NCBI GenBank assembly: GCA_964016885.1
Contig: OZ024740.1
Coordinates: forward strand, 248,558,001-248,622,000
Length of the DNA stretch: 64,000 nucleotides
Reading direction: 5' to 3'
From: Eledone cirrhosa
Lineage: Eukaryota
Of this stretch, positions 596-58,745 are shown one piece after another; the first letter of the stretch is position 1, and the number at the start of each line of letters is the position of its first letter. The position numbers and the translations under genes were made by a program. The notes under the pieces were generated by a model. That model searched no databases. It saw nothing but the letters and a program-made list of their open reading frames with translations, and was not told the DNA's origin.

Positions 596-1873
596 ATATT
601 GTTATACTTGGGGAGGGTCATATTTGTGTAATATTGCCAGAATTAATAACAGAACACACTCACTGTTTGGTTGGTTTTCGCTTCTCGCTGTCTTTTATAT
701 CTGCGATCTAACTTAATCGGTCCTCAATGTTGCCATTGACTGACCGACGGTCAAAAATTATACAGATACAATATAGACACAAACACATATATATAGTTTA
801 CATAATTTACATAAATCTTTCGTTGCACATCTGCAACATCGTCAGTGGTGTTATATTTTTTTTTCCTCCTGTTGTGTTGTATGTCTACGCCATTTTTTAT
901 TCAGTCTGTCTATATATTTATTTATTTATTTGCTTGTTTGTTTATTTATTTTGTCTTCTTTGCGCATGCGTTTGCGTGTGTGTACAGTGTTGTGTGTGCT
1001 GTGTGACTAGTGTGTATAGTGTTGTGTCTGCTGGGTGACTAGTGTGTGTTTATGTGCTTGTTGTTATTGTGCTTGTGTATGTATTTATTTATCTTATTTT
1101 ATTTTATTTTATTTATTTACTTATTTATACTTCTCTTAGGTCAGTGTTGTTTGTTTGGGTGTTGTTGTTGTTCCACTCATTCTTTCTGTTTAGCTTTGGT
1201 CTTCTAATTTCTATTTCACTGGCCTCTCTGATTTGCCTATCTGCTGGGTCATTCCTATGTTTAGATATTATTCTAATTTCTGTTGTCTATGTTACCGTCA
1301 TGTTGTTGTCTAGCATGTTCGTATAGTACTGACCCGTTTTTTAAATAAGTAAATAAATAAAATAAAATAAAATAAGATAAATAAATACATACACAAGCAC
1401 AATAACAACAAGCACATAAACACACACTAGTCACCCAGCAGACACAACACTATACACACTAGTCACACAGCACACACAACACTGTACACACACGCAAACG
1501 CATGCGCAAAGAAGACAAAATAAATAAACAAACAAGCAAATAAATAAATAAATATATAGACAGACTGAATAAAAAATGGCGTAGACATACAACACAACAG
1601 GAGGGAAAAAAAATATAACACCACTGACGATGTTGCAGATGTGCAACGAAAGATTTATGTAAATTATGTAAACTATATATATGTGTTTGTGTCTATATTG
1701 TATCTGTATAATTTTTGACCGTCGGTCAGTCAATGGCAACATTGAGGACCGATTAAGTTAGATCGCAGATATAAAAGACAGCGAGAAGCGAAAACCAACC
1801 AAACAGTGAGTGTGTTCTGTTATTAATTCTGGCAATATTACACAAATATGACCCTCCCCAAGTATAACAATAT
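596..1873 (-). mobile_element. 5'-truncated Penelope-like element (family A) with an inverted pseudo-LTR
   Basis: Near-identical inverted arms at 596-1126 and 1343-1873 give the same 103-aa translation on both strands. The spacer 1127-1342 on the minus strand encodes KNGSVLYEHARQQHDGNID..HRNDPADRQIREASEIE, matching the GIY-YIG C-terminus at 25289-25633. Flanked by (TA)n. Confidence 0.88.
1620..1665 (+). ncRNA. Hammerhead-like motif, family A (mirror copy about 805-850 on minus)
   Basis: CTGACGA (1624-1630), extra T, GTTGCA/GATG/TGCAAC stem II, then GAAA (1648-1651). Stem III and stem I are imperfect in this copy. Confidence 0.55.
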
Positions 1874-2567
1874 ATATATATAAATATATATATATATATA
1901 TATATAAATATATATATATATATATATATATATATATATATATAAATATATATATATATAAATATATATATATATATATATATATAAATATATATATATA
2001 AATATATATATATATAAATATATATATATAAATATATATATATATAAATATATATATATATATATATAAATATATATATATATATATAAATATAGTAGTA
2101 TAATAATTAGTATACTTCAATCTGGCTAAATTTTTCTTTTGCAATATATATACAGATGTGTTGGTATCTGTGTTTCATCACATACATATTAATTTATATA
2201 TATATATATATATATATATATATAAACGTTTGAATTTGTAAAGCCAAACAATGCAGGTATGGACATAGAATAAAAATGCAAATGCAAAAGATATTGTTGA
2301 CAATTAGTCTTTTACCTTATTGTTATACTTTGGGAGGGTCATGTTGCCAATAAGAAACACACGCACCAGTTGCTTTCACTTCAATTTATTATATATTTAT
2401 AAATTTATAAATTTACCTTAGATTTATTTAAATATCCTTAATTTTCGAGATAATCTCTCTTCTTCGGAGGGAGGTAAAGCGGTTAAACCAGTGTTCTAAA
2501 TAGCTTGCCATGTCATAACTATAACTTCCTCCATATATATATATATATATATATATATATATATATA

Positions 2568-2766
2568 GTAATAATACATGTGAAGACTAAAGAGGGCTAA
2601 TATATATATAAAAATATATAAAACCATAGAGCTAATATCTATTAAAATAACAGATTAAAGTTTAAGCAAAGAATCGCTGCTTTCACCCTTAACTAAAAAC
2701 AGAAAATCCCGTTAAGAGTGAAAGCAGCGATTCCTTACTTAAACATTAATCTGTTATTTAAATAAA
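2568..2766. mobile_element. Short fold-back remnant of PLE-like family B
   Basis: Inverted arms at about 2640-2693 and 2711-2763. Homologous to 18836-19652 and flanked by (TA)n. Confidence 0.7.
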
Positions 2767-2790
2767 TATATATATATATGTATATATATA

Positions 2791-3033
2791 TATAAAGAAA
2801 AAAAGCTGAAATCGAAAATGCAACTGGAGTCTTATTTTTAAAAAAATATATATATTTATTTGGTTCCTTTACCGGTTTGCGAAACCGGTAAAGGAACCAA
2901 ATAAATATATATATATATTTTTAAAAATAAGACTCCAGTTGCATTTTCTATTTCATCTTTTTTCTTTATACTTTCACTCATGTTGGACACCTCGGTTATT
3001 TTTCATTTTGTAAAAAAAACCTCACTTTCTAAT
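2791..3033. mobile_element. Hairpin remnant of the PLE family C 3' end
   Basis: Arms at 2791-2878 and 2882-2971 around a 3-nt loop (accggttt-gcg-aaaccggt). Same sequence as 27135-27367, 36987-38618 and 50345-52710. Confidence 0.85.
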
Positions 3034-57230: not shown

Positions 57231-57291
57231 TATATATATATATATATATATATATATATATATATATATATACATATATATATATATATAT

Positions 57292-57690
57292 AATGGAAAA
57301 CGAACAATAAGTGATGCATCGGAACTCAATTTATTGTGTGTTACAATTGTTTCTCCGGCGAACAGCTCGAGGTGCTATCCGTGTGTGGATATACCTGACT
57401 CTAGACTAACAGGTTCCTTGGACACGTCTATTGATTTCGGATCATATCCTCTTATGATCCGAAATCAATAGACCTGTCCAAGGAACCTGCGAATCTAGAG
57501 TCAGGTATATCCACACACGGATAGCACCTCGAGCTGTTCGCCGGGGAAACAATTGTAACACACAATAAATTGAGTTCCGATGCATCACTTATTGTTCGTT
57601 TTCCATTCTATAATACTCTGCTCCGTAGGAGCATAGAGTGCTCAACCGGCATAACCCTTATGGAAGCATCTTACCTACCATTAGACATAT
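57292..57690. repeat. About 315-bp palindrome (6-nt loop) retaining only the 3' half of an HHR in each arm
   Basis: Arms at 57292-57445 and 57452-57607. GAAA-CAATTG-TA at about 57546-57557 with no upstream core. Flanked by (TA)n. Confidence 0.8.
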
Positions 57691-57789
57691 ATATGCATAT
57701 ATATATATATATATGTGTGTGTGTGTATGTATATATATATATATATATATATATATATATATATATATATATATATATATATATATATA

Positions 57790-58745
57790 AGCAAAGTAAA
57801 TGTAGGAGGTACAATACGTTTTAAGCCAAATTTTACTTCGTATATTATGTTTCAACTATACCACAGCGAGTGCACTTATAAACTTTGCTGTTAATTCTAT
57901 TGGTATAGAATCCTCAGAGAAGATATAATTGTTAATACTGATGCCAATCAAGGAAGGTCTAACCAGCCAATCTGGATAAAAGTTCATTTAAAGCAGAGGT
58001 TAATCCTGGATAAAAGTTCAATTAAAGTAGAGGCAATATACGTCATAATGCATAGCTTCTGGGTTAAAAATGTGTGAGCCTAACTTATAATAACAATGGC
58101 TGTTATATAGGGGCGTAATATCTAAGGGATGTAACTATGTTGCATTTAGGGTGAACATTTCTTAGAGGTGTTTACTAACTATAACATGCCTAGATCTGTG
58201 ATGTTAGTAGTGTAGATGTAATGTAGTATGCCGTGGGCTATAGCTAGGCGCCAGTTACTTTGTTAATTATAAGCAGTATTGATTTAGATAATCTGGCTAA
58301 TCTATAAGAGATAGCTACTAGAGGTTTTATGGTTGAAGGAGGAGAGAGAAAAGATAAGGTTGGAAATTGAGGGTTACATTGGATCAAATGTCCTGTTAGA
58401 GAAAGAGTAGTGGAGTCTGTGTTGGCAGTGTATAACTGTTTCTGCTCTGTTATTAATAAGTGTGTGAGGTGAGCAAATGATATAATATGCTTCCATCAGA
58501 CATAATGGACACTTCTTCTTAAAGTTGTAAGATGTTGCTCTACCTATTATACTCCACCGGGTTGTGTACCTTGTGTGAGATTCTATTAGGTGGATGATAT
58601 AGCTAGCGAGAGAGGTTGAGAACTTGAGGTTTCTATTCTTAACCGAGTAGAGATGGGTTCTAAATCTTGTCTTGAATTCATTAGAAGTGACCCCTATATA
58701 GGATTTGGTGCTTTTGTCAGTAATTACTGTACATATAACATTACT
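57790..58745 (-). mobile_element. 5'-truncated PLE (GIY-YIG C-terminus not in the ORF track) with a degenerate 3' HHR
   Basis: Minus 58740-58385 translates VICTVITDKSTKSYIGVTSNEFKTRFRTH..CPLCLMEAYYII..LINNRAETVIHCQHR. HHR-like CTGAGGA-TT-CTATACC..GGTATAG-TT-GAAA at about 57925-57836. Confidence 0.78.

Follow-up and report, generated by a model that had tools for sequence, protein, structure and literature searches.

A TA-microsatellite-rich stretch of the Eledone cirrhosa genome littered with hammerhead-bearing PLE ends and non-coding hammerhead repeats

The 64-kb stretch of DNA analysed here (the window) is very probably a region rich in TA microsatellites and littered with the 5'-truncated ends of about 20 families of Penelope-like retrotransposons (PLEs) and with non-coding hammerhead repeats of 322-730 nt, the latter likely inserted by PLE enzymes; every such end bears the type I hammerhead of its own family. 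Its hammerhead copies are mobile-element ends and form no functional array; the window richly samples a hammerhead load that is genome-wide, and as a locus it is not special. Hammerheads in PLEs, their targeting of TA and the two start sites of the RT have been published before; what is new is the size of the load and a young PLE whose A13C core is fixed. A broader reading, held with somewhat less than even confidence, is that no denser hammerhead load has been counted so far (roughly one strict motif every 10 kb, or some 3e5 altogether) and that it was built by an ecosystem of TA-targeting elements: several independent retrozyme circles of 322-730 nt would be written into DNA by dimers of the PLE RT, which prime on both strands from two fixed sites of a single RNA, while a young autonomous PLE has spread with an A13C core. 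If true, the spread of the A13C PLE would offer a natural experiment on whether the element benefits from its ribozyme or is simply parasitised by it.

Hammerhead motifs of the window

Both strands were searched with a strict type I hammerhead descriptor (core C3-G8 or U3-A8; stem I at least 3 bp, stem II at least 3 bp, stem III at least 2 bp; A15.1-U16.1), the type I core being C3 U G A N G8 A9...G12 A A A15.1...U16.1 H17 with three stems and an open stem I. Sixteen strict motifs were identified, ten with a C3-G8 and six with a U3-A8 core, as against a mean of 0.15 and a maximum of 1 in 40 local dinucleotide shuffles of the window and none in its reversed sequence. Allowing one core mismatch gave 24 matches against 1.95 in shuffles; those at 9971, 53344 and 53452 look like noise. 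No hammerhead model was found among 109 Rfam matches of the window at E<=10, which held only microsatellite-driven miRNA noise. Minimal hammerhead variants are expected to escape Rfam models.

Manual inventory via family homology added about 20 variant or decayed full motifs and five 3' halves to the strict set, so the figure of roughly 30 copies in an earlier note on this DNA is fair. The density is also far above that of the dinucleotide-shuffled controls which that note had proposed. All nine of its example coordinates are type I hammerhead motifs by the descriptor, five exactly placed (20998-21067, 21189-21309, 23118-23201, 38517-38552, 57075-57191) and four off by 1-3 nt (36708-36752, 42786-42845, 43600-43645, 54819-54890), and the seven palindromic stem III sequences that it named all occur in the window. 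Its "about 15 unrelated families" holds in part: strict motifs fall into nine families, or about 20 groups with the decayed copies, but "unrelated" is overstated, as F7 and F10 are 68% identical, F8a and F8b 77%, and F6 and F6v 73%.

Window repeats were mapped with masked self-BLAST; (TA)n swamps unmasked repeat finding. F15, a unit of ~620 nt with an atypical motif, was left out of the hammerhead count, and F16 (18831-19566; 27 matches in 800 kb) has no hammerhead in its final 180 nt. The features are as follows (strand in brackets, a dot where none is assigned).

596-1873 (.): F1, 5'-truncated 3' ends of a PLE as an inverted pair with (TA)n on either side; 532-nt 100% inverted repeat, 74-89% like 24793-25507
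Near 807-849 (-) and 1620-1662 (+): F1 hammerhead-like motifs; core and stem II intact, stem I ~2 bp
2795-3031 (.): F6 foldback, two 3' halves of an ACCGGT hammerhead, inversion centre within the motif
4438-4515 (+): F8b hammerhead; U4C in the window copy, U4 in L067 and L126
18425-18480 (+): decayed TATGTA-group hammerhead; C3U, stem III TACGTA
18692-18817 (.): F17 foldback, two core-plus-stem-II motifs without the 5' strand of stem I
19837-19898 (-): F2, long-tail arm in an inverted PLE pair; strict hammerhead with stem III ATGCGCAT
20998-21067 (+): F2 strict hammerhead, short-tail arm
21117-22219 (+): F3 non-coding 730-nt unit, 1.5-mer between (TA)n; longest ATG frame 50 aa
21189-21309 and 21919-22039 (+): F3 strict hammerheads by the descriptor, ACAATTGT
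22303-22790 (.): F4 inverted PLE end; hammerhead 22481-22586 (+) with family-wide U4C, 3' half 22345-22410 (-)
22820-23270 (+): F5 young non-coding 481-483-nt unit; strict hammerhead 23118-23201, 4-bp stem III, predicted monomer fold
24255-24733 (.): F6v inverted ends of a very young PLE; hammerheads ~24355-24400 (-) and ~24530-24575 (+), U3-A8, fixed GCAA
24793-26394 (-): F1 PLE; hammerhead-like motif near 24981-25023 and 3' UTR, with (TA)n 24734-24791 at its end
25651-26394 and 25289-25666 (-): F1 PLE frames, RT C-terminal and GIY-YIG-like respectively; motif by eye, no Pfam match
27193-27228 (+): F6 strict minimal hammerhead, U3-A8, ACCGGT
34114-34881 (-): F15 non-coding partial tandem of ~600-630 nt in (TA)n; atypical motif TTGACGA...GAAA, ~34315-34410
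35010-36402 (.): F4-like inverted PLE end; EN remnant 35121-35243, decayed hammerhead 36165-36250 (+), half 35040-35105 (-)
36416-36915 (+): F7 non-coding 322-nt unit, 1.55-mer; strict hammerhead 36708-36752, U3-A8, ACAGAGCTCTGT
36988-38614 (.): F6 inverted PLE pair; strict hammerheads 37123-37158 (-) and 38517-38552 (+)
42757-43000 (+): F8a, Hydra-like PLE present as a solo pseudo-LTR; strict hammerhead at 42786-42845 with predicted monomer fold
43031-43747 (.): F9 non-coding ~325-nt unit, inverted two-armed insertion; strict hammerhead 43600-43645 (+), A6U copy 43188-43233 (-)
44053-44330 (.): F10 inverted pair of a 326-330-nt non-coding unit, F7-related; hammerheads 44230-44274 (+, A9G) and ~44100-44150 (-)
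44337-44500 (-): F8c pseudo-LTR with hammerhead, G8A in the window copy
48570-48803 (+): F11 short TA-ended element; hammerhead 48570-48654, family-wide U4C core
50346-52707 (.): F6 inverted PLE; strict hammerheads 50479-50514 (-) and 52604-52639 (+), EN remnant near 51700-52160 (-)
52772-54948 (+): F12 PLE 3' part; Hydra-like EN frame 52900-53793, strict hammerhead 54819-54890, ATATATAT
55027-57228 (-): F13 PLE 3' part; Hydra-like EN frame 56242-57000, strict hammerheads 55177-55293 (-) and 57075-57191 (+, inverted arm)
57293-57606 (.): F4c foldback, two decayed hammerheads (ACAATTGT), from self-BLAST and inventory
57790-59015 (-): F14 PLE 3' part; EN frame 58374-58835, decayed hammerhead near 57830-57925

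Genome-wide hammerhead load

Sixty other 10-kb stretches of the genome hold 57 strict motifs, against 2 in shuffles, i.e. 95 per Mb or 6.1 per 64 kb; extrapolation from these stretches gives ~2.8e5 strict motifs genome-wide (range 1.7-4.1e5). The window is 2.6-fold richer than this sample (bootstrap P 0.018 before allowing for window selection), the flanking 200 kb hold 3.8 per 64 kb, and single 10-kb stretches elsewhere reach 6. All window motifs are members of dispersed families, for which first-look searches, where made, gave 470-5523 candidates each. High-copy families were also seen in three contig runs of unrecorded kind from one sample. The "dense array" of the earlier note thus stands as an enrichment over shuffles and over the genome sample; its reading as a special array is unsupported, because the load is genome-wide. 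At about one motif per 10 kb, the long introns of this genome hold such motifs, and the real cleavage rate therefore matters for host transcripts.

PLE families

F1, F2, F4, F6, F6v, F8a, F12, F13 and F14 adjoin RT/GIY-YIG frames and were assigned to EN+ PLEs, by Pfam for F6 and by tblastn links for the others, with the frames of F6v and F1 recognized by eye. The F6 ORF (L143) matches Pfam GIY-YIG (E 9e-7), and RT/EN lies upstream in 9 of 20 genomic F6 copies (eight RT matches, one a neighbour). GIY-YIG-like frames occur upstream of F2 in 7/20 and, by eye, of F6v in 3/20 genomic copies, an EN frame upstream of F4 in 5-6 of 20, and a PLE ORF start immediately downstream of F8a in 17/25. The F8 alignment was left out of the scoring of stem pairs because its stem I register shifts between subfamilies. 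The four in-window EN frames upstream of F1, F12, F13 and F14 match a 705-aa RT-EN protein (P0001) or each other. Pfam names none of the in-window EN frames, and P0001 itself has no RT or GIY-YIG match in Pfam and matched no solved structure. By-eye motif reading suggests a Neptune-like CX4CxxC linker in F6, F6v and F1 and a Hydra-like CxxC...E...N...CxH in the P0001-type frames. The anatomy is that of PLEs: pseudo-LTRs (partial tandems) or inverted 5'-truncated arms, a one-end tail and a microsatellite target. The F6v core (U3-A8 with GCAA, i.e. A13C) is fixed in 20/20 copies, and a U4C core is family-wide in F4 and F11; such families allow one to ask whether cleavage is needed.

Non-coding units

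Five units have fixed periods (F7, 322 nt; F3, 730; F5, 481-483; F9, 322-332; F10, 326-330) and are non-coding, their longest ATG frames being 33-50 aa. No consistent ORF was found beside their genomic copies (upstream of F5 in 0/20, F10 0/20, F9 1/25; scattered only for F7 and F3). All five are head-to-tail non-coding units with one type I hammerhead each, as in non-LTR retrozymes; further loci agreeing with this assignment are 21189/21919 in the window, L017, L024 and L027 (F7), L258 (F5), L165 and L173 (F9) and L272/L276 (F10). An upstream partial unit was present in 24/30 F7 and 24/30 F3 loci, and one F7 trimer was found. Uncleaved read-through multimers or template jumps are also possible sources of partial tandems. 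Cut-to-cut monomers were rejected as the inserted form, F7 5' ends showing no clustering at the cut site.

The copies are spread over many contigs, mostly as 1-2 units; their 3' ends are fixed, and their 5' ends and points of inversion fall at scattered positions. F5, F9 and F7 show inverted arms of PLE type and two fixed 3' ends, 81/190, 119/166 and 143/169 nt past the cut respectively (ranges 81-143 vs 143-190 nt). Inverted pairs combine a short and a long end in 8/9 F5 rows (6 distinct loci) and 14/19 F9 rows (12 loci). Among the 16 inverted arms of F7, 11 stop at 131-143 and none at 168-174. In F3 an inverted arm was seen in 0/30 loci and there is one 3' end, so its PLE dependence rests solely on the TA target and the internal end. 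None of the five units aligns with a pseudo-LTR among the window's PLE ends, the set compared, and therefore no autonomous partner is named. Predicted circular folds are strong on the sense strand (z -3.0 to -8.7, 57-65% paired) and equally strong on the antisense strand, a comparison made without a PLE-UTR control. No convincing Pol III B box was found in any unit (three loose antisense matches), nor any sense-strand A>G excess in 9/9 families among top-identity copies, a choice that would hide edited ones.

Target site and proposed insertion mechanism

A (TA)>=6 tract lies within 300 nt downstream of the cut in 15/16 strict motifs, as against 21% of random positions, and upstream in only 6/16. 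TA follows the 3' end in 30/30, 29/30, 20/20 and 20/25 copies of four non-coding units. Together with the PLE frames beside nine families and the five ORF-less tandem units, this bears out the proposal of a guild of PLEs and small non-coding elements with (TA)n as common target.

The following mechanism is suggested by insertion anatomy and published PLE biochemistry, in which two internal RT start sites with both-strand extension (PMC11167929) and a one-end tail and TA targets (PMC8557442) have been described. The PLE GIY-YIG nuclease would cut (TA)n, and RT would start at one of two fixed internal sites, 40-230 nt past the hammerhead cut, rather than at the cut itself. As this start would lie just downstream of the hammerhead, any insertion, however truncated, would keep a hammerhead near the TA tract. 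With both strands of the break primed, each arm from a different start site, the product would be an inverted pair that faces outward and is long at one end and short at the other. Non-coding units would be copied past unit length, likely from tandem or circular RNA arising via hammerhead cleavage, and the motif cluster would be a by-product of the common target preference. The role of the hammerhead in PLEs and the copying of retrozymes into DNA are open questions in the available text of PMC4209133, PMC8557442, PMC11167929, PMC7229834 and 10.64898/2026.07.22.740005; this genome offers many young families side by side, and ORF-less units with a two-start-site footprint point to the likely enzyme and the exact priming sites.

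Covariation and predicted ribozyme function

Among homologous units, 10 of 14 stem pairs changed on both sides, including C3-G8/U3-A8 (0/500 shuffles; slid controls <=47% paired), in a set of 13 related rows hand-picked from 118 tail-homology matches, from which the structure was also drawn. Within young families the core is hardly better conserved than the remaining sequence (1.4% vs 2.5% deviation), with both-side changes only in F10. The covariation that the earlier note had sought thus appears among homologous subfamilies and hardly at all in young families. The predicted monomer fold lies within 0.5 kcal/mol of the minimum for only 2/16 motifs (23118 and 42786). An antisense copy lies within 2.2 kb of 9/16 strict motifs, and 21189/21919 is the only same-strand, same-family intact pair less than 1 kb apart. 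Published accounts describe the hammerheads of PLEs as weak or as assisted by protein (PMC4209133, PMC11167929). The majority of copies are in decay and would be inefficient cutters; that a read-through transcript would be cut at multiple sites is doubtful and unsupported.

Alternative explanations

That the motifs are chance matches in AT-rich low-complexity sequence, a reading with which the empty Rfam search and the three noise-like one-mismatch matches would agree, has a negligible probability: it is already refuted by the shuffle counts in the window and the genome sample and by the compensatory changes, and the motifs hold a fixed position within repeat families. A selected regulatory device, whose transcript from either strand would be cut at many points, is very improbable. 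The strand distribution of the strict motifs (12 on +, 4 on -), the local 2.6-fold excess with its uncorrected P and the two motifs with a predicted monomer fold would fit such a device, but every motif belongs to a dispersed family, single 10-kb stretches elsewhere contain up to six, and about 20 window copies are variant or decayed. Apart from two DUFs, the Pfam matches of 46 long frames from the 200 kb on the flanks were all of transposon type, in a search that short exons would escape.

It is also unlikely, if less so, that the non-coding units are fragments of PLE pseudo-LTRs amplified as DNA, whether by unequal crossover as in satellites or by MITE-like transposition of foldbacks, the hammerhead merely being carried along. 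This route is put forward in 10.64898/2026.07.22.740005, constraint within families is weak, and the young PLE F6v has spread with a non-consensus core (GCAA, 20/20), so an intact ribozyme may be unnecessary. Dispersed copies of 1-2 units that share fixed 3' ends but differ in their 5' ends and inversion points are nevertheless what reverse transcription would be expected to leave, and the hammerhead stems covary among diverged units; insertion by PLE enzymes is the preferred reading.

Comparison with known systems

Like the metazoan PLE pseudo-LTR hammerheads described in the available text of PMC4209133, the motifs are type I with a palindromic stem III, a U3-A8 variant and a base left unpaired at the bottom of stem II. 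In both cases one genome holds numerous heterogeneous families, copies occur singly or as pairs on opposite strands with 100-700 bp between them, and there is a link to RT-GIY-YIG frames. That work gives thousands per genome, whereas ~95 per Mb and an estimated 1.7-4.1e5 are found here, with differing descriptors; loop II reaches 80-90 nt and the U4C and A13C cores are family-wide, unlike there. In the main texts of the literature on octopus hammerheads and cephalopod Penelope elements, no comparable hammerhead count was found. Per-species retrozyme counts in the supplements of 10.64898/2026.07.22.740005 may bear on the density comparison.

The TA target, partial tandems, inverted arms and one-end tail are shared with PLEs of the Neptune and Hydra clades as described in PMC8557442, where tails are 30-40 nt; tails here are 26-170 nt, and the clade likeness is suggested by motif reading. 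As with Poseidon PAc in vitro (PMC11167929), two internal RT starts would lie downstream of the hammerhead and both strands of AT-rich DNA would be cut and extended, the hammerhead of that element being protein-assisted and dispensable in vitro. Here, unlike in the available account of Poseidon PAc, the footprint occurs on units that lack an ORF, and within a single insertion each arm would have a start site of its own.

In the published portions consulted, metazoan non-LTR retrozymes (PMC7229834, 10.64898/2026.07.22.740005) differ from the present units, which for the most part are dispersed as 1-2-mers in (TA)n, show inverted arms of PLE type, are known from DNA alone, and have minimal or variant rather than canonical cores. 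The likeness lies in head-to-tail non-coding units, a few hundred nt long and each with a single type I hammerhead, in their low GC and predicted self-paired circular fold, and in co-occurrence with PLEs; the retrozyme size range of 51-972 nt given in these two reports takes in all five units.

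Hammerhead motifs in the window

The window, with a GC content of 37%, is part of a 443-Mb contig in an assembly of 3.0 Gb; it contains 83 (TA)≥6 runs, numerous TA-bounded short inverted repeats, and LINE and LTR remnants. An Rfam scan returned 109 matches with E ≤ 10 in the window, with hammerhead models absent among them. Using a type I descriptor, with 40 local dinucleotide shuffles and the reversed sequence as controls, sixteen strict motifs (without core mismatch) were identified, against a mean of 0.15 in the shuffles and none in the reversed sequence. The density claimed in the earlier note thus held against shuffled sequence, and its nine example coordinates and seven stem III palindromes are all present. 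Twelve strict motifs are on the plus strand and four on the minus strand, with C3-G8 (ten) or U3-A8 (six) cores. Allowing one core mismatch gave 24 motifs (1.95 in shuffles), while manual inventory added approximately twenty variant or decayed motifs and five halves. The strict copies fall into nine repeat families (F numbers), with kinship between F7 and F10 (68%), F8a and F8b (77%) and F6 and its relative F6v (73%).

A TA tract starts less than 300 nt downstream of the cut site (after H17) in 15 of the 16 strict copies, at 14-185 nt, the sole exception being the inner unit of a tandem. Only 21% of random window positions have a tract within the same downstream distance, and an upstream tract accompanies only six strict copies. 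Outside the window, 52 of 69 strict motifs have TA downstream (random, 19%). This polarity shows that the inserted elements carry the hammerhead close to their 3' end.

Penelope-like element carriers

In the window, the ends of four reading frames are followed downstream by a hammerhead.

Window frames ending upstream of a hammerhead
25289-26394
52900-53793
56242-57000
58374-58835

Three of these match P0001, a 705-aa reverse transcriptase (RT)-nuclease database protein (E 1e-13 to 1e-37). Inspection of P0001 by eye showed an RT motif, a Cys linker and a C-terminal CxxC...E...N...CxH nuclease, the linker and nuclease pattern being that given for Hydra-clade Penelope-like elements (PLEs), nearly all of which are described as inserting at (TA)n (PMC8557442). 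The F6 frame has a Pfam GIY-YIG match and a Neptune-like CX4CxxC linker. A PLE ORF begins directly after F8a in 17 of 25 genomic loci; for F6 (9/20 loci, one belonging to a neighbour), F2 (7/20) and F4 (6/20), such an ORF is found upstream in the same orientation. The 3' ends of PLE families occur at two positions past the cut: 36/162 nt for F8a, 59/230 for F4, 42/155 for F13 and 44/about 150 for F2. Long microsatellites, (TG)n, (CA)n, (TTTTA)n and (AAT)n, are built into PLE 3' UTRs (50900-51600, 55500-56100, 3450-4350 and 20100-20900), and PLEs may thereby be the source of some of the microsatellites in the genome.

F6v is very young (30 copies of equal score, 99%) and, with a frame similar to that of F6 upstream in 3 of 20 loci, appears from its sequence to be a Neptune-like PLE. 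In all 20 copies inspected (window 24255-24733; genomic loci L321-L340) GCAA replaces GAAA (A13C), together with U3-A8. Either the altered core is new and tolerated, or the element has succeeded with a dead ribozyme; the literature searched contained no young PLE in which A13C is fixed. U3-A8 is itself reported as an active natural variant, and U4C, family-wide in F4 and F11, as a natural variant of low in vitro activity (PMC3088659).

Non-coding units

Five families form head-to-tail partial tandems.

Non-coding tandem units and their lengths
F7, 322 nt
F3, 730 nt
F5, 481-483 nt
F9, 322-332 nt
F10, 326-330 nt

No ATG frame in these units exceeds 50 aa, and no PLE frame was found at a constant position beside their copies. 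First-look genomic candidates range from at least 470 to at least 3053. A partial unit lies upstream in 24 of 30 loci for both F7 and F3. Their 5' ends are scattered and their 3' ends fixed, followed by TA in 30/30 (F7), 29/30 (F3), 20/20 (F5) and 20/25 (F9) copies, window copy included. These ends lie beyond the cut site rather than at it (F5 +81/+190, F9 +119/+166, F7 +143/+169; F3 a single end near +190), and F5, F9 and F7 share the two-ended arrangement of the PLE families. Inverted insertions pair a short with a long arm in 8 of 9 F5 rows (six distinct loci) and 14 of 19 F9 rows (12 loci), the other five being unmappable or different. Of the 16 inverted F7 arms, 11 have their end at 131-143 and none is long, the forward arm being long by query choice; F3 had no inverted arm in 30 loci. 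No match to this short-plus-long rule on ORF-less units was found in the literature searched.

Other units were also seen. F11 (48555-48803; L291-L305) is short, abundant (4860 first-look candidates) and TA-ended, with copies starting about 15-25 nt upstream of the core and no tandem period or ORF seen; it is possibly a SINE-like PLE derivative. F15 (34114-34881; L306-L320), non-coding and about 600-630 nt, forms partial tandems in (TA)n and keeps a TTGACGA...GAAA motif, its stem I not being clear. At L115:6131-7911, six 311-nt units that share an identical hammerhead form a two-armed array; they are kin to F7 and F10.

Selection on the hammerhead

Covariation among copies, a check proposed in the earlier note, was found between homologous units and hardly at all within young families. 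In the latter, deviations from the majority (core 29/2090, stems 96/5350, elsewhere 1115/45471) show hardly any constraint and fit neutral decay after insertion, with both-side pair changes in F10 only. A>G editing scars on the sense strand showed no excess in any of nine families, the copies compared being those of top identity, among which edited ones would be hidden. The hammerhead occupies one and the same position in a 300-nt alignment of F7, F10 and the 311-nt unit. In 13 rows hand-chosen from 118 tail-homology hits, 10 of 14 base pairs show changes in both partners, 3-8 among them, and 87.8% of cells pair (slid controls, at most 47%); none of 500 shuffles equalled this, a count not to be taken as a probability, given the relatedness of the rows and their use in deriving the structure. 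Selection on the structure between homologous units is clear.

Insertion or read-through cutting

The earlier note suggested that a transcript of the locus could be cut at many points; such shredding is unsupported. Only the motifs at 23118 and 42786 are predicted to reach the monomer hammerhead fold at no more than 0.5 kcal/mol above the minimum; for 36708 the cost is within 2.6, and for the remaining 13 it is 4-12. An antisense copy lies less than 2.2 kb from nine of the 16, and 21189/21919 is the only close same-strand pair. Minimal PLE hammerheads are reported as inactive monomers and weak dimers (PMC4209133), and one of nine Xenopus dimers cleaved (10.64898/2026.07.22.740005). No host coding domain was found among 46 long frames in the flanks.

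Position, polarity, family structure and the two ends of the hammerhead elements are read directly from the copies. Very probably they represent TA-targeting PLE ends together with non-coding hammerhead units inserted by PLE enzymes. A purified PLE protein is described as cutting and extending both strands of AT-rich DNA and beginning reverse transcription at two internal sites bounding the genomic tail; the hammerhead of that PLE requires protein and is dispensable in vitro (PMC11167929). PLE enzymes would insert both the autonomous and the non-coding elements, the two strands of one break being primed at the two RT start sites. Copies exceeding unit length would derive from tandem or circular RNA, a circular template for the non-coding units being evenly balanced in our judgement. 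The hammerhead would outlast truncation because it is positioned just upstream of the RT start sites. Perfect foldbacks with the inversion centre in or just upstream of the hammerhead occur at 18692-18817, 2799-2963, 57293-57606 and 52772-53060, and several genomic F17 copies invert at almost one place, a hint of RT stalling at the structured motif.

Other repeats

The final 180 nt of a very abundant TA-ended inverted family (18831-19566, 2624-2759; 27 hits in 800 kb) contain no hammerhead, and this family may represent a PLE end that lacks the ribozyme. LINE remnants with RT and APE-type domains (5746-7227, 23503-24260, 29060-33072, 39200-41200, 60059-63190) resemble the LINEs that dominate the flanks, and an RNase H remnant of an LTR retroelement lies at 14535-15927. 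Neither the 201-nt duplication at 30977-31337, which surrounds (AAG)n tracts, nor a degenerate, GC-richer direct repeat region (41671-42459) has a hammerhead link.

Genomic load and comparison with known systems

Sixty evenly spaced 10-kb stretches on 13 contigs contained 57 strict motifs (shuffled, 2), or 6.1 per 64 kb, and 200 kb flanking the window contained 12 (3.8 per 64 kb). Relative to the sample, the window is enriched 2.6-fold (bootstrap P 0.018, uncorrected for the way the window was chosen), and counts track TA-cluster density (Spearman 0.55). No hammerhead density of this size was found in the literature searched. All components of the preferred reading, PLE ends with PLE-inserted non-coding units, are already published, and the inverted arms, one-sided tails and TA targets are described as PLE hallmarks (PMC8557442). 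Extrapolation gives 95 motifs per Mb (58-137), or approximately 2.8e5 genome-wide (1.7-4.1e5), beside about 9,000 in Xenopus tropicalis (PMC4209133) and more than 6,000 in coral, about 5,000 in mussel and 126,247 in axolotl (PMC7229834), a comparison that is indicative since descriptors differ and the sample was not strictly random.
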